Assembly (NCBI GenBank): GCA_034420475.1
Contig: DAOULH010000034.1
Location: forward strand, 4,956-68,955
Direction of reading: 5' to 3'
From: Dehalococcoidia bacterium
GTDB taxonomy: Bacteria > Chloroflexota > Dehalococcoidia > Lucifugimonadales > UBA3495
DNA: 64,000 bases
The notes beneath the pieces were generated by a model that saw only the letters and a program-made list of their open reading frames with translations, was not told the origin of the DNA and made no database searches. Below, piece after piece: positions 11,152 to 25,863 of this stretch. A program made the translations under genes and the position numbers. Every line of letters starts with the position of its first letter. Position 1 is the stretch's first letter.

Positions 11152-11311
11152 CGCCCGAACTCGTCGATCATATTGAGACAGTCCGGCGCCACGGTTTAAG
11201 GTATCCAACCAACACGTGCCGCCAGGCGTCAGGGATTGCTGCTCGGCGCCGGCGCGGACCAGACAGGCACGCTTTGAGAATTTACCCAGGACTATCACGG
11301 AGGTGTGCAAA

Positions 11312-12187
11312 GTGGAAGATTTGTCGAACGGGGTATTAATCGCCATCGATTGGGAAAACATACGTCGCGGGGCGACGCTGTACCAGAAAAGCGTAACCCC
11401 TCAAGCGTTGTACGAAGCCATGACTAAGGTGGGGCAGGTTTTCGGAGAAGTGATGGGGGGCAAGGCATTCGGAGACTGGAGCCTCCGGCCCGATGACGGC
11501 ACCGCTTTCACTCAGGCGGGCATCACCCTTTACCACGCCCCCCGGACCATGGCCGGCAAAGACCGCAGCGACCCGTCCATCCTGCTGGAGGTCTACGACT
11601 GGCTCCGTGACCGCGAAGATTGCAGCGTGGTCATCCTCGGTTCCGGAGATTCCGACTACCAGGTGCTGGTGGACCGGGCTCGCAGCATGGGTCGTCGGGT
11701 GATTCTTTGCGCCTTCAGCCAGTCCGTCGCCCGCGACATGCTCGCCGTTGCCCCATTGTTCCCGCTGGAAGCCGAGCTGGGTTTCCAACTGGCCGAACAT
11801 GGTGATGTTGATATCCAGCTGCCCACTCTGGAGGAACAGGCGGAAGCGGCCCAGGATGTGCTCCAGATCTTCGTCCGCGAAATGAACAAGCTGGAATCCC
11901 GCATGAACTTCGTGGGATACAGTATGCTGTGCAACCAGTGGATGCTCGACTGGGGGATCGCCTGGAACGAATTTGAATGCCGCCGGCTGGTGGAAGATTG
12001 GCTGTACGAAGGGATCATCGAACGGCACGATGTCCCCAACCCCAACAATCCCCAGTATCCCACCTCCGCAGTGCGCCTCGTCCGAACCAACGAATTGGTT
12101 CGCGACGCCCTGGGATTGAACCGCCCGGCAATCTCCAATCCGGTGCTCTCCTCCGTCGGCGATCAGAACTATCAAAACTCGGAGTAA
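11312..12187 (+). CDS. NYN-domain (LabA/DUF88-like) putative ribonuclease with C-terminal helical domain
   Basis: VLIAIDWENI...GDW....DPSILLEVYDW...VVILGSGDSDYQVLVDRARSMGRRV matches the NYN/LabA acidic-residue pattern. GTG 11312 has GGAGG 9 nt upstream. Confidence 0.7.
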   Translation: MEDLSNGVLIAIDWENIRRGATLYQKSVTPQALYEAMTKVGQVFGEVMGGKAFGDWSLRPDDGTAFTQAGITLYHAPRTMAGKDRSDPSILLEVYDWLRDREDCSVVILGSGDSDYQVLVDRARSMGRRVILCAFSQSVARDMLAVAPLFPLEAELGFQLAEHGDVDIQLPTLEEQAEAAQDVLQIFVREMNKLESRMNFVGYSMLCNQWMLDWGIAWNEFECRRLVEDWLYEGIIERHDVPNPNNPQYPTSAVRLVRTNELVRDALGLNRPAISNPVLSSVGDQNYQNSE

Positions 12188-16029: not shown

Positions 16030-16183
16030 TATAGCATTTTGGCCGGCGGTAGGGCAAACGCGATGATCTCCCCCGAATCATGCTACCGATTGTCCAAGCG
16101 CCATCGCGCTCGTATGATGGTACAAAATGCGCCAGTCGGCCGCTCTTACCAACGCCGTCAGCGCTGCATCGCAGGTGCCCTTT

Positions 16184-16786
16184 ATGACAACACCATCTCT
16201 CATCACCATCCCGGCGCGGCGCGGCAAGGCCGCCTTCCTGGAACAGGGCCAAAGCGTGCGGGTCATCAACACCCACGGCCAGCAGGTCGTCGACACCTGG
16301 GCCTTCTCCCGCCATGACCCAACGGAGTTCATGTCCATGGAGCACTCCCGCACCGCCATCGCCCGGATCATGGCGCAGGTCGGCCAGTCCATGGTCACCA
16401 ACCGGCGCCGTCCGATCCTGACGCTGGTAGAAGACACGTCGGGCGGGATACACGACACGCTGATAGCAGCGTGTGACCGGTATCGCTACGAACTGCTGGG
16501 CTGCGAGGACTACCACGACAACTGCACCGACAACCTGGCCGCAGCTCTCGCGGAGCTTGGGCTGACTCCGCCGGAAACCCCCAGCCCGTGGAACCTGTTC
16601 ATGAACATCCCGGTGGGCGCTGACGGCACGGTCAGCTTCGAACCACCGGTCTCCGGGCCGGGGAACCACCTGACCCTGCGCGCCGAAATGGACTGCATCA
16701 TCGCGTTCTCAGCCTGTCCCCAGGACATAGTGCCCATCAACGGCGTCGACTGCGTTCCCACCGAGGCGCACTTCCAGATCATCTAG
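16184..16786 (+). CDS. DUF1989 (urea-carboxylase-associated/aminomethyltransferase-like) family protein
   Basis: IPARRGKAAFLEQGQSVRVINTHGQQVVDTWAF...HLTLRAEMDCIIAFSACPQD is the DUF1989 pattern as I remember it. Internal ATG 16184 chosen as start. Confidence 0.65.
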   Translation: MTTPSLITIPARRGKAAFLEQGQSVRVINTHGQQVVDTWAFSRHDPTEFMSMEHSRTAIARIMAQVGQSMVTNRRRPILTLVEDTSGGIHDTLIAACDRYRYELLGCEDYHDNCTDNLAAALAELGLTPPETPSPWNLFMNIPVGADGTVSFEPPVSGPGNHLTLRAEMDCIIAFSACPQDIVPINGVDCVPTEAHFQII

Positions 16787-18602: not shown

Positions 18603-18631
18603 TTGACATCGGGCACCAGTGCGGCTAAACT
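18603..18631 (+). promoter_or_regulatory. near-consensus sigma-70-type promoter
   Basis: TTGACA (18603-18608), 17-nt spacer, TAAACT (18626-18631). Preceded by two TTTTTGCGA direct repeats 10 bp apart (18559-18577). Confidence 0.55.
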
Positions 18632-19086
18632 GCGGGCAGTTAAACGCAGGTCTGCACAACCATCAACCTGCCCTTAAACAAGGAGGCCATATGAGTGCAG
18701 CCGCGCTTTCAGCGCACCGACAATCGTCGGAACCGGACTCTATGCGGTCCCGTGATATGCGGGACCAGTGCAACGGCACTCTGCTTTTGGGATGCGGCCG
18801 CCCAAGCACGGATGACACCATCCGCGGGCGGGCCAAACACCAGCTGCCCTGCGAGCCTTAGCTGCTCGCAGCCTGAAACGGGCGGCGGAAGTAGCGCTCC
18901 GCCACACGCCCTCCCCACTCGGGTTTTCGCCGCAACGCCGACTGATGGCTGGCGCGTAACCGAACGTGTCCATCCGCACTTGGGGCATTCGTGCCTCCAC
19001 CCGGCCGCGACGGCAAACTGGGCCGAAATCAGGCCAAAAATCCACCATTGCCAACAAAGCTTGGCCATCAAAGACGAGGAGCAAAT

Positions 19087-19476
19087 ATGAGAGAAGTCCT
19101 TAGGTCCAAAATCCATCGCTGTTGGGTGACCAGTTCCAACCTGGGGTACGTGGGCAGCATCCTCATCGACCGTGATCTCATGGAGCAGACGGACATCGTC
19201 GCCTTCGAGAAGGTCCAGGTGCTGAATATCAACAACGGCGCCCGCTGGGAAACCTACGCCCTGCCGGCTGAGCGCGGCAGCGGCACCATCGCCGTTCAAG
19301 GCGCCGCCGCCCGGCTGTGCCAGGAGCGCGACTGCCTCATCATCCTCGCTTTTGAGGTCACCGACGAGCCTGTGGATCCCCGCATGGTGTTGGTCGACGA
19401 GAACAACAAATTCCTGGAGTGGATCGAAGGTTCAATGTATGCCGAACCCCAGCCCGAGCCCGTCGCGCTTTTCTGA
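19087..19476 (+). CDS. panD: aspartate 1-decarboxylase
   Basis: MREVLRSKIHRCWVTSSNLGYVGSILIDRDLM with the Gly-Ser self-processing site (VGS). AGGAG RBS 6 nt upstream of ATG 19087. Confidence 0.85.
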   Translation: MREVLRSKIHRCWVTSSNLGYVGSILIDRDLMEQTDIVAFEKVQVLNINNGARWETYALPAERGSGTIAVQGAAARLCQERDCLIILAFEVTDEPVDPRMVLVDENNKFLEWIEGSMYAEPQPEPVALF

Positions 19477-20299
19477 GCGGGAGACGGAAGAATACTACGA
19501 CGCTGAGGACGCCCTCTACCGTTCCTTCTGGGACGCGGAGGGCTCCCTCCACTGGGGAGTGTTCAACTCTCCGGAAGAACCGGGATCGGCCCACGAAGTC
19601 AGGGAAGGCTTTCTCAATGCCTGCTCCCGCCTGAATGGCATCATGCTGGAGAACTCCGGCATCGACGGTTCGGCTCGGGTCCTTGACCTGGGCTGCGGAA
19701 ACGGGAACACGGCCACCTGGTTGTGCCGCGCCACCGACGCCCACGTTACGGGCATCGACCTGAGCGGGGTCCGCATCGCCAACGCCATCGCGTCGATGGC
19801 CGCGGCGCCGGAGCTGGCCCCGCGCATGGAGTTTCACAAGGCTTCGGCCACCGAACTCCCCTTCGCGGACGGCGCCTTCTCCCACGTCTGGAGCCAGGCC
19901 ACTATCTACCACATCCCTGATAAGGAAAAGACGCTGCAGGAAGCGTACCGGGTGTTGGGGCCCGGCGGCGTGATGGTCTTTGACGACCTCACCAAACCCA
20001 GGCCCGACATCAGCGACGAAGCGCGCACTTTCGTGTACGACCGGCTGCTGTTCGACACCGACTTCAGCTTCTACTCGTACATGGACGCCCTGCGCGAAAC
20101 CGGCTTCAAGGTGCTGGAGGCCCGCGACCTGTCCGCGCATCTGGCCCGCAGCTATTCCTGCCTGTCGCAGATGGCCGCCACCGGCGCAGACCCCGAACGG
20201 CAAGAACGTTTCGCCGCGCTCTCCGACGCCTACCTGAAGATGGTGAAGGCGGTGCGCAACGAAGAACTGGGCTGGGCCCAATACCTCTGCGTCAAGTAG
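19439..20299 (+). CDS. SAM-dependent N-methyltransferase, sarcosine/dimethylglycine N-methyltransferase-like, paralog 1
   Basis: ETEEYYDAEDALYRSFWDAEGSLHWGVF, VLDLGCGNGN, C-terminal ELGWAQYLCVK. Start ATG 19439 overlaps the panD 3' end by 38 nt. Confidence 0.75.
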   Translation: MPNPSPSPSRFSERETEEYYDAEDALYRSFWDAEGSLHWGVFNSPEEPGSAHEVREGFLNACSRLNGIMLENSGIDGSARVLDLGCGNGNTATWLCRATDAHVTGIDLSGVRIANAIASMAAAPELAPRMEFHKASATELPFADGAFSHVWSQATIYHIPDKEKTLQEAYRVLGPGGVMVFDDLTKPRPDISDEARTFVYDRLLFDTDFSFYSYMDALRETGFKVLEARDLSAHLARSYSCLSQMAATGADPERQERFAALSDAYLKMVKAVRNEELGWAQYLCVK

Positions 20300-20348
20300 A
20301 CGCGCCAAGATCTGAGCTACGAGATCTGAGCTACGAAAGGAGCAATGT

Positions 20349-21200
20349 ATGGTAACGGGTCACCGGTTTTCGGAACAGGAGACCGAGGAATACTACGACG
20401 CCGAGGACGTCATCTACCGCTCCGTGTGGGACGCCGACGGCAGCGTACACTGGGGGGTCTTCGACAACGAACCCACCAGCGATGACAACATCCGCGAGGA
20501 ATTCCGCAGCGCGGGCATCCGCCTCAACGAACTGATGGTGGAATACGCGGGCATCGGCGCCAACTGTCGGGTTCTCGACGTCGGCTGCGGCAACGGTACC
20601 AATGTGGTCTGGGTGCATCGGAACACCGGCGCCCATGCGACCGGCATCGACCTCAGCGGAGTCCGCATCGCCAACGCCGTGGCATCCCTGGAACAGATGC
20701 CGGAACTCGCCGGAAAAGTGGCATTTGAGAAGGCCTCTGCGACTGACCTCCCCTTTGCGGAGGGAGCGTTCACCCACGTCTGGAGCCAGGCCACCGTTTA
20801 CCACGTGCCCGACAAGGTCAAGGTGCTTGAGGAAGCCTTCCGCGTTCTCGAACCCGGCGGCCAGCTCATCTTCGATGACCTTATCAAGCCCCGTGCCAAT
20901 ATCAGCGAATCGGCGCGCAAGTTCGTTTACGACCGCCTGCTCTTCGACACCGACTTCAGCTTCTACTCGTACATGGATGCGTTGGTCAAGGTGGGTTTCC
21001 GCGTGATGCAGGCCCGCGACCTGTCGTCCCACCTCGCCCGCAGCTACACCTACCTGTCCCGGTTGGCGTCCATTGCGGAAGGTCCGGAGGGATACCAGGA
21101 CCGCTTCGACTACCTGACCGACGCCTACATGAAGACCGTGGAAGCCATCAACAACGACGAGCTGGGATGGGCGCAGTACCTGTGCATCAAGCCGGCCTAG
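20349..21200 (+). CDS. SAM-dependent N-methyltransferase, sarcosine/dimethylglycine N-methyltransferase-like, paralog 2
   Basis: 283 aa, by eye ~60% identical to paralog 1 (ETEEYYDAEDVIYRSVWDADGSVHWGVF; VLDVGCGNGT; ELGWAQYLCIK). AAGGAG RBS 6 nt upstream. Confidence 0.8.
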   Translation: MVTGHRFSEQETEEYYDAEDVIYRSVWDADGSVHWGVFDNEPTSDDNIREEFRSAGIRLNELMVEYAGIGANCRVLDVGCGNGTNVVWVHRNTGAHATGIDLSGVRIANAVASLEQMPELAGKVAFEKASATDLPFAEGAFTHVWSQATVYHVPDKVKVLEEAFRVLEPGGQLIFDDLIKPRANISESARKFVYDRLLFDTDFSFYSYMDALVKVGFRVMQARDLSSHLARSYTYLSRLASIAEGPEGYQDRFDYLTDAYMKTVEAINNDELGWAQYLCIKPA

Positions 21201-21228
21201 TCGCATACCAACTGCGGAGCAGATACCC

Positions 21229-21873
21229 ATGCCTGAATCGGGAAGCATCAATCCGGACGAGAGAGTCCAATGGGTCTACTCGTCCACCACCAACGACGAG
21301 TTGGCCGAGCGTTACGACCAGTGGGCCCAAGAGTACGACGACGATCTAGAAAACACTTTCGTCTGGCTCGCGCCCCTGCGCGGCGCCGAGACCCTCGCTG
21401 AGCACGTCGCCAAAAACGCCAAGATACTTGACGCCGGCGCCGGCACCGGCCTGGTCGGCGTGGAGCTCCAGCGTCTGGGTTACGGGGACATCTGCGCCAT
21501 GGACCTGTCGGAGGGAATGCTGGAGGAAGCCCGCTCCAAGGGCTGCTACAACGACTTCCGGCAGATGGCCCTGGGCGATCACCTGGATTTCGAAGCCAAC
21601 GCCTACGACGCGGTCATCAGCATCGGCGTCTTCACCCCGGGCCACGCGCCGCCCAATTCCTTCGTGGAACTTTGCCGTGTAACCAGGCCCGGCGGTCACA
21701 TCGTCTTCAGCATGCGCCCGGATACCCACGTCGAGCTGGGCTTCAAGGATCAGCAGGACGCCCTGGTGGAAAGCGGCGCCTGGTCCCTGGTCGGCGTCAC
21801 TGAGCCGTTCCAGCCCCTGCCCAAGGGGGAGCCGGAAGTGATGCACCAGATCTGGGTCTACCAGGTGAACTGA
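21229..21873 (+). CDS. class I SAM-dependent methyltransferase (Methyltransf_11/25-like)
   Basis: ILDAGAGTGLVGVELQRLGYGDICAMDLSEGML...RPGGHIVFS. GGAG 9 nt upstream of the ATG. Confidence 0.75.
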   Translation: MPESGSINPDERVQWVYSSTTNDELAERYDQWAQEYDDDLENTFVWLAPLRGAETLAEHVAKNAKILDAGAGTGLVGVELQRLGYGDICAMDLSEGMLEEARSKGCYNDFRQMALGDHLDFEANAYDAVISIGVFTPGHAPPNSFVELCRVTRPGGHIVFSMRPDTHVELGFKDQQDALVESGAWSLVGVTEPFQPLPKGEPEVMHQIWVYQVN

Positions 21874-22002
21874 CCCAACACCATCGCAAGTCCGACATGA
21901 TCGAGGGGCGGCCGTTCGGTCGCCCCATTACTTTGTCGCCGTGTGTCCCGGATGCGCACGAACCGGTTCTCCTCACGCGTACTCAGTTTGCGGCGGAGAA
22001 CC

Positions 22003-22150: not shown

Positions 22151-22179
22151 TTGACCGCCTGTTCACACCGTGATATTCT
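22151..22179 (+). promoter_or_regulatory. candidate promoter for the TPP-riboswitch transcript
   Basis: TTGACC (22151-22156), 17-nt spacer, TATTCT (22174-22179), about 25 nt upstream of the riboswitch P1 stem. Confidence 0.45.
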
Positions 22180-22202
22180 CGCGCTACAAAATCGAATAGG
22201 TT

Positions 22203-22322
22203 TCTGGCGGGAGCTTGGTTATGCCAGGCTGAGAGGGCGGCCGAAAAAAGCCGCCGACCGTAGCACCTGATCCGGGTAATGCCGGCGTAGGAAGTTGGAA
22301 TCATCTTTTACGTGCCGCCAGA
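22203..22322 (+). promoter_or_regulatory. TPP (THI-box) riboswitch
   Basis: Conserved cores GCUGAGA (22228-22234) and ACCUGAUCCGGGUAAUGCCGGCGUAGGAAG (22265-22294). P1 candidate tctggcgg (22203-22210) pairs with ccgccaga (22315-22322). Confidence 0.9.
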
Positions 22323-22398
22323 GTTTTAGAGCCTGGCGGTTTCTCGTTTTGCGGCAACCGCCTCCGTTCACCTATTCGAAGCAACCGGGAGGTTGGTT

Positions 22399-23898
22399 AT
22401 GCTGGATACCACCGTAGGGATCATTACCCTGGTAATCGCATGCGCCGTGTTCCTCGTCCTGGGCCTGACTTATGCCTGGCGTCGCCGTCGCCAGAGCGTG
22501 GAGGACTACACCACCTCCCGGAACCATGCCCCGTTCAACGTCGGTGTCGCCACCCTGGTCGCCTCAATGTTCGGGACCTGGGTGCTCCTCAGCCCCGGCG
22601 AGACCGGCGCTAACTTCGGCATCATCTCCCTGGTCGGCTACGCCCTGGGAATGGCGGGAATACCGGTGATGTTCATGTTCGTCGGCCCGCGCATCCGTGC
22701 GCTGATGCCCAACGGACACTCGGTCACCGAGTATGTGCGCCACCGCTTCGGGATGGTCCCGTTCGTCTCCATTTTCGTGGTCATCATCTTCGTCATCGGC
22801 ATCTTCATCACCGCGGAGATGACCGCCATCACCGCCGCGGTGAGCATCCTCACCGGTTCGCCGGCGTGGGCCACGGCGGTCGCCGTCGGGATCGTAGTCA
22901 TCGCCTACACCGCCTACGGTGGCCTCCGCGTCTCCATCTACACCGACCGCATCCAGTTCTGGATCCTGATCCCCGTCCTCCTGCTGCTGGTTATCGTTGC
23001 CGCCGTTCTGGTGGGCGGCTCCGGCGCCTGGGGCGAGGCCAAACAGGCCGGCCTGCTATCGGTCACCACCTCGGGCAGCTACTTCTTCGCCATCGTGCTG
23101 ATCATCGGCATCGTGGCGTCCAACGCCTTCCACCCCGGAATGTGGCAGCGCGTGTACACCGTGGAGAGCCAGGCGGCGCTGAACCGCAGCCTCTGGGGCG
23201 CGGCGGCCATCGCCATACCGTTGACCTTCCTGATGGGCATGGCCGGCATCGCCGCCGTCGGCAACGGTTCCGTCGGCCCCTTCCAGTACCCCGAGGTCGC
23301 CGCCGCCCTGTTCACCCTGGCCGCTGACGTGTTCCCCCTGTGGATGCACTTCCTGATCCTCATCTGCGCCCTCATGCTCGCCATGAGCACCCTGGACACC
23401 CTGATGAACGGCCTGGCCAGTGGCATGGCCGCCGACCTCGCCGGGATTGGCCTGGAACGGAGGATGCTGATGGGTTTGGCCCGAGCCGTCACCGTGATCG
23501 TGGCCATCCCGGCGATCATCGTGGCTTCCCAGGGCCACAGCGTGCTCTACGTCTTTCTCATCGCCGACCTGCTGGGCGCCGCCATCGCTGTGCCCATGCT
23601 GGTGGGCTTGTATTCCAGCCGTATGCCCGGCTGGGGAGTAATCCTCGCCGGAGCCGTTGGCATCGTCATCGGCGCCCTCTACTACCCCAAACCGGACCTG
23701 CTCTCCCCGTGGGCGCTCACCGCGCCCGCCGGAGGCCAGATGTTCTGGGCTTTCGCATCTGCGCTGGTGATCTCATCCGTCATTTCGGCGGTGGTGGTCC
23801 TGGGTCAGCGCATCGTGGCGCCCGACAGCCAGTACGACTTCGCCATCCTCAACTCCGACGTCAGCCTGATTGACGAACCCGCCGCAGCGGACGACTGA
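22399..23898 (+). CDS. sodium:solute symporter (SSS) family transporter, TPP-riboswitch controlled (ThiV-like, putative thiamine-precursor uptake)
   Basis: ~499-aa polytopic membrane protein with SSS-like organisation. GGGAGG RBS 6 nt before ATG 22399. Directly downstream of the riboswitch and upstream of thiC. Confidence 0.75.
   Translation: MLDTTVGIITLVIACAVFLVLGLTYAWRRRRQSVEDYTTSRNHAPFNVGVATLVASMFGTWVLLSPGETGANFGIISLVGYALGMAGIPVMFMFVGPRIRALMPNGHSVTEYVRHRFGMVPFVSIFVVIIFVIGIFITAEMTAITAAVSILTGSPAWATAVAVGIVVIAYTAYGGLRVSIYTDRIQFWILIPVLLLLVIVAAVLVGGSGAWGEAKQAGLLSVTTSGSYFFAIVLIIGIVASNAFHPGMWQRVYTVESQAALNRSLWGAAAIAIPLTFLMGMAGIAAVGNGSVGPFQYPEVAAALFTLAADVFPLWMHFLILICALMLAMSTLDTLMNGLASGMAADLAGIGLERRMLMGLARAVTVIVAIPAIIVASQGHSVLYVFLIADLLGAAIAVPMLVGLYSSRMPGWGVILAGAVGIVIGALYYPKPDLLSPWALTAPAGGQMFWAFASALVISSVISAVVVLGQRIVAPDSQYDFAILNSDVSLIDEPAAADD

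Positions 23899-25863
<1,965 letters not shown>

Follow-up and report, generated by a model that had tools for sequence, protein, structure and literature searches.

In glycine betaine synthesis, stepwise N-methylation of a small amino acid with S-adenosylmethionine (SAM) by two different class I methyltransferases is known from the GSMT and SDMT (or DMT) enzymes of Aphanothece halophytica, Halorhodospira halochloris, Actinopolyspora halophila, and Methanohalophilus portucalensis. The GSMT and SDMT genes studied by Nyyssola and Waditee reportedly lie side by side, are sometimes fused, and sometimes have metK as a neighbor. To our knowledge, the only known biosynthetic enzyme for beta-alanine betaine comes from Plumbaginaceae plants, and this enzyme, BANMT, is said to have been placed by Raman and Rathinasabapathi in 2003 in the plant O-methyltransferase (COMT-like, PF00891) family. 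BANMT of Limonium latifolium (EC 2.1.1.49) is the only beta-alanine betaine enzyme that has been cloned, and ApGSMT and ApDMT have been described in the same source (PMC9699165). Here, we describe a gene cluster located at positions 18603–21936, on the forward strand, of a 64,000-nucleotide stretch of DNA from a marine Dehalococcoidia bacterium of the SAR202 group (phylum Chloroflexota; GenBank assembly GCA_034420475.1, contig DAOULH010000034.1), hereafter called the window. The cluster contains panD followed by three methyltransferase genes and is probably one operon for the de novo synthesis of beta-alanine betaine (3-trimethylammoniopropanoate).

The cluster follows the logic of the GSMT/SDMT pairs in that two methyltransferase types, here termed MT_A and MT_B, would act in succession. 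MT_A also has an SDMT-like predicted fold (TM-score of 0.78 to PDB 2o57) and shares with SDMT an N-terminal YYD...W...HxG block. In contrast to the GSMT/SDMT systems, a dedicated decarboxylase, PanD, supplies the amine, so that the substrate would be beta-alanine rather than glycine. Moreover, MT_A does not reach the SDMT cutoff, its partner MT_B resembles METTL27, and only a fusion protein from Symploca has a weakly GSMT-like domain. Compared with Limonium BANMT, the proposed product and the three intermediates are the same (PMC6657504, PMC9699165), but the plant protein is one trifunctional enzyme whereas the operon has two methyltransferase types, and beta-alanine in plants does not come from an adjacently encoded PanD-type enzyme. 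The relationship between the operon and BANMT would be one of convergent evolution. What is new, and supported rather than proven, is the enzyme combination for betaine synthesis by stepwise N-methylation in uncultured bacteria, possibly together with a new leader. The original prediction for this locus had stated that no characterized bacterial pathway was known to its author, and no description of a microbial beta-alanine betaine pathway was found in the literature searched.

The panD gene (19087–19476) encodes a predicted pyruvoyl-dependent aspartate 1-decarboxylase of 129 residues and is preceded by the Shine-Dalgarno sequence GAGGAG, 5 nucleotides 5' of its ATG. The product scores 113.6 bits against TIGR00223 (cutoff 106) and 132.7 bits against PF02261 (cutoff 25). 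In an alignment to Mycobacterium tuberculosis PanD (PDB 2c45), Lys9, the Gly24-Ser25 cleavage site, Arg54, Thr57, and Tyr58 are kept, and all of these are invariant across 12 aligned SAR202-type PanDs. The usual Asn72 is replaced by Gln in the window and in at least 90% of these 12 sequences. Judging by the curated cutoff and the catalytic residues, the product should be a bona fide aspartate 1-decarboxylase. In family and in catalytic residues, it agrees with the PanD of the canonical pantothenate pathway (panBCD). Unlike the canonical gene, it lies behind a long leader with a translated open reading frame (ORF), overlaps a methyltransferase gene, encodes Gln at residue 72, and has no panB or panC nearby, as had been noted originally: tblastn with Escherichia coli PanB and PanC gave no match in the 64-kb window (best E > 4).

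The 3' end of panD overlaps the gene of the first methyltransferase, MT1 (19439–20299; 286 residues), by 38 nucleotides. The ATG at 19439 is assigned as the MT1 start because no other in-frame start precedes the conserved RFSERETEEYYDAED block. MT2 (20349–21200), a tandem paralog of MT1, follows after a gap of 49 nucleotides and has the Shine-Dalgarno sequence AAAGGAG; after a further 28 nucleotides and a GGAG motif comes MT3 (21229–21873; 214 residues). MT1 and MT2 form the MT_A family, and MT3 represents MT_B. The operon begins with a sigma-70-like promoter at 18603–18631 (TTGACA, a 17-nucleotide spacer, and TAAACT; 10 of 12 consensus positions) and is closed at 21905–21936 by an intrinsic-terminator-like hairpin, GGGGCGGCCGTTCGGTCGCCCC then ATTACTTTGT, with nine pairs, eight of which are G-C, and a T-rich tail. 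The earlier description of this gene order holds: the overlap was found at the same coordinates (19439 versus 19476), the third class I methyltransferase does follow behind short gaps, each with a Shine-Dalgarno-like motif, and the paralogs, thought to be about 60% identical, are 64–65% identical. The MT1–MT2 spacer also contains a perfect 14-nucleotide tandem duplication (AGATCTGAGCTACG twice, 20308–20335) just 5' of the MT2 Shine-Dalgarno sequence.

MT1 is a class I SAM-dependent methyltransferase with an SDMT/MitM/PMT-like fold and matches the Pfam families Methyltransf_11, _25, and _31. The best solved relatives of MT_A by sequence are MitM, RebM, TleD, and AtmM, followed by the Galdieria SDMT (PDB 2o57, E 1.7e-17) and the phosphoethanolamine N-methyltransferases of plants and parasites. 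An AlphaFold2 model of MT1 calculated from a 74-sequence alignment has a pLDDT of 95.8 and a pTM of 0.92; an earlier run with 11 close homologs gave a pLDDT of 63 and was discarded. Foldseek superimposed the model on MitM, AtmM, SpnF, and the SDMT 2o57 with TM-scores of 0.77–0.82. Since MitM, AtmM, SpnF, and RebM match the model as well as or better than 2o57, an SDMT-type fold does not discriminate among these enzymes. MT1 and MT2 were also considered as true SDMTs, and this assignment was rejected: they score 83.8 and 85.1 bits, respectively, against the SDMT model NF041675, whose equivalog cutoff is 550. The GSMT model NF051855 is not among the NCBIfam matches for MT1 and MT2 (best 25 each) or MT3, and PF00891 matches none of the three proteins at E ≤ 0.001. 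According to the model, MT1 and MT2 therefore share the fold group of SDMT, PMT, and RebM without being members of the SDMT family. The SDMT-like N- and C-terminal blocks on which the original prediction had relied reflect a real but weak resemblance, which extends to the fold but not to membership in the family.

MT3, a class I SAM-dependent methyltransferase as well, has mouse METTL27 (PDB 7qcb) as its best match in the PDB, with 83 bits and an E value of 2.5e-22. Residues 28–194 of MT3 align with residues 33–204 of this structure (167 residues), including an N-terminal YDxWAxxYDxD block that is shared between them. METTL27, also called WBSCR27, is a mammalian orphan and the closest solved relative of MT3; unlike MT3, the animal enzyme is not linked to PanD in the genome. 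The METTL27 study detected neither a protein nor an RNA substrate, and its authors suspect a small molecule (PMC9240639). No curated model exists for METTL27-like methyltransferases. An assignment of MT3 as a GSMT was rejected because MT3 misses the curated cutoff.

The close relatives of the operon all come from metagenome-assembled genomes of uncultured Dehalococcoidia/SAR202 bacteria; complete SAR202 genomes of this type with the operon include OZ242004.1, OZ220731.1, and OX638345.1. Many of them appear to originate from sponges, judging by the isolate names RHO3, IRC4, and SB0666, a SAR202 bin, and a PanD homolog derived from Geodia barretti. Across about 60 SAR202 loci, the conserved core consists of PanD, one MT_A, and MT_B. 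The order panD–MT_A–MT_B is kept in 54 species-level loci with the exception of L046 and L048, in which truncated MT_A ORFs (198 and 234 residues) occur without panD or MT_B; a further locus, L044, ends at a contig edge before panD. The three-gene module is retained down to 55% PanD identity in sponge and pelagic metagenomes. Sponge and open-ocean assemblies also contain more distant PanDs (about 60% identity), again followed by an MT_A of 272–273 residues, with a 20-nucleotide overlap, and an MT_B of 209–210 residues. An overlap between the panD stop and the MT_A start is present in 39 of 62 loci, measuring 38 nucleotides in 17, 32 in one, 26 in eight, and 20 in 13, and nearly all loci lacking it belong to genomes in which MT1 is lost or decayed. 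This arrangement is far beyond chance. The original prediction had made conservation of the panD–methyltransferase linkage in relatives a point on which it could fail; the linkage is conserved in about 60 SAR202 loci, in Symploca, and in two further lineages.

A census of the loci and a neighbor-joining tree place a single MT_A duplication at the base of the window's super-clade. Seventeen ORF-called loci, the window among them, retain both paralogs intact, and L007 also has a full-length MT1 match. Eight genomes have the MT1 type alone, and about 24 have the MT2 type alone, several of them with MT1 remnants. MT1-like fragments of 64–129 residues lie between panD and MT2 in L025, L027, L029, L031, L035, L037, L038, and L040; these are pseudogene remnants, reflecting the ongoing loss of one paralog. 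Outgroup loci carry a single pre-duplication MT_A, of which MT1 is the positional ortholog. The duplication was thus followed by reciprocal loss, leaving both MT1-only and MT2-only genomes, and either paralog evidently suffices. The idea that MT1 and MT2 are specialized for different steps and both required was rejected in view of these genomes and the MT1 remnants. The emphasis first laid on two paralogs plus an additional methyltransferase therefore has to be shifted: the indispensable set is PanD, one MT_A, and MT_B, and MT3 is not an add-on but a core partner and the more conserved one. Recent intragenomic duplications were observed on two contigs. On a contig of 3.57 Mb (L057 and L058), panD occurs twice, with methyltransferases in one case and standing alone beside metH in the other; the two copies are near-identical recent duplicates and share the same leader. 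On a contig of 2.02 Mb (L059 and L060), a block of panD, MT_A, MT_B, two DUF1538 genes, PII, and CBS is present twice, a small reverse-strand PaREP1 ORF being called after MT_B in one copy, and transposase genes lie nearby in related contigs.

Additional contexts were obtained from a profile search of 1.84 billion representative proteins, which yielded 85 relatives at E < 1e-30, several of them with more than one domain. One of them, P0286, is a protein of 674 residues (NER48858.1) from the cyanobacteria Symploca sp. SIO1A3, SIO1C2, and SIO1B1 that is annotated as aspartate 1-decarboxylase and consists of PanD, a GSMT-like domain, and MT_A in this order. Its PanD domain scores 119 bits (cutoff 106), and its MT_A domain matches MT1 at 34% identity over 271 residues (E 3e-50). 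The middle domain best matches GSMT/GNMT (PDB 5gwx), with 57 bits against NF051855 (cutoff 350). In Symploca SIO1C2 (JAAHFP010000001.1, 7001–11500), the gene of this fusion precedes, in this order, genes for a ferredoxin and a 465-residue MT_A–MT_B fusion and a second panD-like ORF at about 11199–11498 that is uncalled in the source annotation. MT_A–MT_B fusions of about 466 residues occur elsewhere among the MT_A relatives. In P0245, the C-terminal half shares 36% identity with MT3 (E 9e-31), and in the locus L072, panD and then metK come after such a fusion. In another locus, L073, panD lies 3 nucleotides upstream of MT_A. Thus, a precursor-forming enzyme and at least two methyltransferases are encoded in one conserved transcription unit or polypeptide.

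The MT_A–MT_B pair is further extended in P0252, a protein of 790 residues from an AT-rich Logan assembly, whose host is probably eukaryotic. Its additional dioxygenase-like domain best matches gamma-butyrobetaine (129 bits), 2-trimethylaminoethylphosphonate (126 bits), and trimethyllysine (105 bits) dioxygenases, all three of which act on trimethylammonium substrates. The fusion of MT_A–MT_B to a domain of this type points to a quaternary ammonium product, and it suggests that P0252 makes a hydroxylated betaine by a carnitine-like route. A different context was found for P0250 (270 residues, 45% identical to MT1; L069 and L070), which lies on a low-GC contig of Gram-negative type and has no adjoining panD or MT_B. 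Its gene is divergent from a class III (omega-amino acid) aminotransferase gene, and a second class III aminotransferase is encoded nearby; the adjacent enzyme may be an alternative supply of an omega-amino acid substrate. Collectively, as far as can be read from the sequences, the fusions and contexts tie PanD to MT_A, MT_A to MT_B, and the pair to a quaternary ammonium product.

The operon is headed by a structured 5' leader of about 450 nucleotides (18632–19086). In about 50 SAR202 loci, DNA-level conservation extends over the 580-nucleotide region 5' of panD, and the conserved block begins at the promoter site; in an alignment of 54 upstream regions, the -35 hexamer and the -10 region mostly show conservation of 95% or more. 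RNAalifold identified covarying hairpins at about 18748–18764, 18849–18871, and 18880–18911, with compensatory changes in which 5–8 of 18 sequences altered both sides of a pair while pairing was kept. In addition, the 5' end of the leader pairs with the Shine-Dalgarno/start region in an invariant stem. The leader contains an ORF of 56 codons plus TAG (18691–18864; MSAAAL...KHQLPCEP) preceded by AAGGAGG. The hairpins are located inside this ORF, around its stop codon (in the loop of 18849–18871), and just downstream. The ORF is intact in 48 of 48 loci of the window's clade. Distant lineages have ORFs of 32, 38, and 46 codons that share the ending [LF][PL]x[ED]P-stop, as seen in LPCEP-stop, FLPTDP-stop, and FLNEP-stop, so that four lineages retain an ORF with a common C-terminal motif. 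Of the single-nucleotide codon differences, a fraction of 0.47 is synonymous in frame, as opposed to 0.23 and 0.26 out of frame. In the conserved ends, the third codon position has the highest entropy; over the last 13 codons it is 1.10, compared with 0.45 and 0.29 at the other positions. The frame-specific synonymous excess and the independent ORFs in four lineages led us to reject the ORF as an artefact of GC-rich structured RNA. The leader and its [LF][PL]x[ED]P-stop ORF are also found upstream of the stand-alone panD copy (L057).

Glu-Pro-stop and Asp-Pro-stop are poor termination contexts; in 2002, Hayes, Bose and Sauer reportedly observed inefficient termination in E. coli when Glu or Asp comes before Pro-stop. 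Because the ORF ends in Glu-Pro-stop, we suspect, by analogy, that the leader is a termination-pausing attenuator, a new candidate of the leader-peptide type. As with TnaC and other regulatory leader peptides ending in Pro-stop, the ORF is short, conserved, and translated and belongs to a long leader. Yet, it does not resemble TnaC, SpeFL, or other known arrest peptides in sequence, and a covarying hairpin holds its stop codon in the loop. The leader has no Rfam family match at E ≤ 1, on which ground a known riboswitch was rejected, and the ORF has no match in Pfam. A limited literature search found no relevant description of a panD leader peptide, and we know of no peptide-mediated leader control in the host phylum Chloroflexota.

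In the pathway that we propose, PanD would decarboxylate L-aspartate to beta-alanine, and the two methyltransferase types, MT_A (duplicated as MT1 and MT2) and MT_B (MT3), would N-methylate beta-alanine to the betaine at the expense of three SAM molecules. The early methylation(s) would fall to MT_B and the late one(s) to MT_A, given the analogy to GSMT and SDMT and the Symploca fusion, in which the GSMT-like domain stands between PanD and MT_A, in the place of MT_B. In seawater and sponge tissue, the product would act as a nitrogen-based compatible solute, a role suggested by the marine and sponge habitat and by its established role in plants (PMC6657504), and it may secondarily store methyl groups or nitrogen or be exchanged as a metabolite. 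Expression would probably be controlled via the long structured leader, whose 56-codon ORF has its Glu-Pro-stop end within a conserved hairpin. The candidate pathway of the original prediction, stepwise N-methylation of panD-derived beta-alanine to the betaine, is supported by the conservation and by the fusions at the level of sequence.

Further support from the literature is circumstantial. Beta-alanine betaine has been measured in marine particles and is made by SAM-derived methylation in open-ocean North Pacific communities, for which only the plant pathway was cited (PMC9321204), and the red alga Pyropia haitanensis, a member of the Porphyra group, accumulates it upon dehydration (PMC12113544). 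Nothing relevant linking sponges or SAR202 to beta-alanine betaine was found in the literature searched. A comparable module is DsyGD of the synthesis of dimethylsulfoniopropionate (DMSP), the sulfonium analogue of beta-alanine betaine. DsyGD likewise combines a methyltransferase with a decarboxylase for a zwitterionic three-carbon onium osmolyte but, unlike the proposed operon, acts on sulfur substrates. As a decarboxylase domain, DsyD differs from the PanD domain (PF02261), which has been called a candidate DsyD isoform, and a DsyG-like–PanD fusion (OSX77567.1; methyltransferase plus PF02261) of Porphyra umbilicalis showed no DMSP-synthesis activity (PMC11306096).

Three other explanations of the locus have to be weighed. 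The operon might modify beta-alanine short of the full betaine, yielding N-methyl-beta-alanine, N,N-dimethyl-beta-alanine, or a methyl ester for use as a building block or signal. Indeed, the closest solved MT_A relatives include the single-methyl O- and N-methyltransferases MitM, RebM, and AtmM, nothing in the window fixes the methylation number, and genomes manage with only two methyltransferases. Nevertheless, we regard such an outcome as unlikely. Two methyltransferase families that are always kept together, and are also fused, fit successive methylations of a substrate of changing charge, as in GSMT/SDMT; the dioxygenase domain of P0252 indicates a quaternary product; and no nonribosomal peptide synthetase, polyketide synthase, or other consumer genes adjoin the operon. 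It is quite improbable, in turn, that a different onium compound is formed from another amine, such as glycine betaine, or gamma-butyrobetaine from gamma-aminobutyric acid (GABA), with panD being co-transcribed for another reason or acting on a non-canonical substrate. The clade PanDs do have Gln for the usual Asn72, but the equivalog cutoff is exceeded and the known substrate-binding and catalytic residues are otherwise all kept. MT_A matches the SDMT model with an E value of 1e-23, a level at which many other models score similarly, yet the curated SDMT and GSMT cutoffs are missed more than 6-fold. The P0252 dioxygenase domain has its highest similarity to gamma-butyrobetaine dioxygenase, and the MT_A relative P0250 stands beside class III aminotransferases, which also handle GABA; against this, PanD is covalently joined to the methyltransferases in Symploca, an arrangement that would be difficult to account for if the PanD product were not their substrate.

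It seems least credible of all that panD is a housekeeping gene for pantothenate and coenzyme A and that the methyltransferases are unrelated passengers, for instance, quinone, lipid, or xenobiotic methylases; we consider this highly improbable. The source annotation does call the homologs ubiquinone/menaquinone biosynthesis C-methylase UbiE, but the window methyltransferases score only 35–60 bits against UbiE/MenG models with cutoffs of 158–420. The operon panD is the only PanD match in the 64-kb window, and the leader accompanies panD even where the methyltransferases are missing. However, passengers would not be expected to show overlapping reading frames in 39 of 62 loci, to be fused, or to recur as part of the triad, in a different gene order, in a second phylum.

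The synthesis of beta-alanine betaine by this operon also has to be set against several points. The operon panD may at the same time be the housekeeping copy; the same leader stands at the panD without methyltransferases, and the L057/L058 pair is weak evidence for a dedicated panD because its copies are near-identical recent duplicates. The activities of both methyltransferase families are predictions. MT_A matches natural-product N-, O-, and C-methyltransferases (MitM, AtmM, RebM, TleD, and GPP-MT) as well as it matches SDMT, so that N-methylation of a small amino acid by MT_A cannot be read from its sequence or fold. For MT_B, the nearest solved relative, METTL27, is itself an orphan enzyme (PMC9240639). 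A trimethylated product is suggested, and the methyl number (one, two, or three) derives only from the P0252 dioxygenase fusion. Finally, betaine transporter and SAM-recycling genes are absent from the operon in the window.

A more far-reaching interpretation may be entertained, although we hold it rather doubtful as a whole. PanD, MT_A, and MT_B would constitute a widespread, convergent beta-alanine betaine system, the first in microbes and unrelated to the plant enzyme, that occurs in globally abundant SAR202, both pelagic and sponge-associated, and in marine filamentous cyanobacteria and, in fused form, perhaps in eukaryotic microbes, and that represents a major unrecognized source of this compound in the ocean. 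MT_B would then provide the first substrate class for the METTL27 family, namely small omega-amino acids, and the leader would encode a new metabolite-responsive peptide that pauses at Glu-Pro-stop within a hairpin. If beta-alanine betaine is indeed the product, the gene set would mark its producers in metagenomes and metatranscriptomes, as dsyB, DSYB, and mmtN do for DMSP. SAR202 Chloroflexota are uncultured and among the most abundant bacteria of the deep ocean and of sponge symbioses. MT_B would likewise be the first functional lead for METTL27/WBSCR27, a gene of the Williams-Beuren region whose substrate has long been elusive. The single polypeptide of Symploca, with a decarboxylase and two methyltransferase domains, could serve in osmoprotection engineering as a compact component that needs neither choline nor oxygen, and the leader ORF, if its proposed function is true, would add a new example of peptide-mediated control.

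Beyond the operon, the upstream flank encodes an MBL-fold hydrolase, a peroxiredoxin fragment, GreA, a DUF1989 protein, a quinone oxidoreductase, and a SprT-like protein, and the downstream flank encodes a PIN toxin and a LigB dioxygenase; these are housekeeping functions unrelated to the operon. Downstream of the terminator after MT3, a promoter-like site (22151–22179) and a thiamine pyrophosphate (TPP) riboswitch (22197–22311; 59.3 bits, over the gathering score) precede a gene of the sodium:solute symporter family (22393–23898) and thiC (23983–25863). The symporter was considered as the betaine transporter of the cluster and rejected owing to this terminator and to its own promoter-like site and riboswitch, and it is linked to the operon in the closest relatives only. 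The symporter gene and thiC form a separate thiamine-regulated unit, and their position behind the riboswitch and the promoter-like site makes the symporter a candidate thiamine-precursor transporter. The DUF1989 protein (16127–16786) scores 114 bits against the urea-amidolyase-associated UAAP2 model and 99 bits against the corresponding region of trimethylamine N-oxide demethylase, both well under the cutoffs, and synteny of its gene with the operon is confined to the closest relatives.

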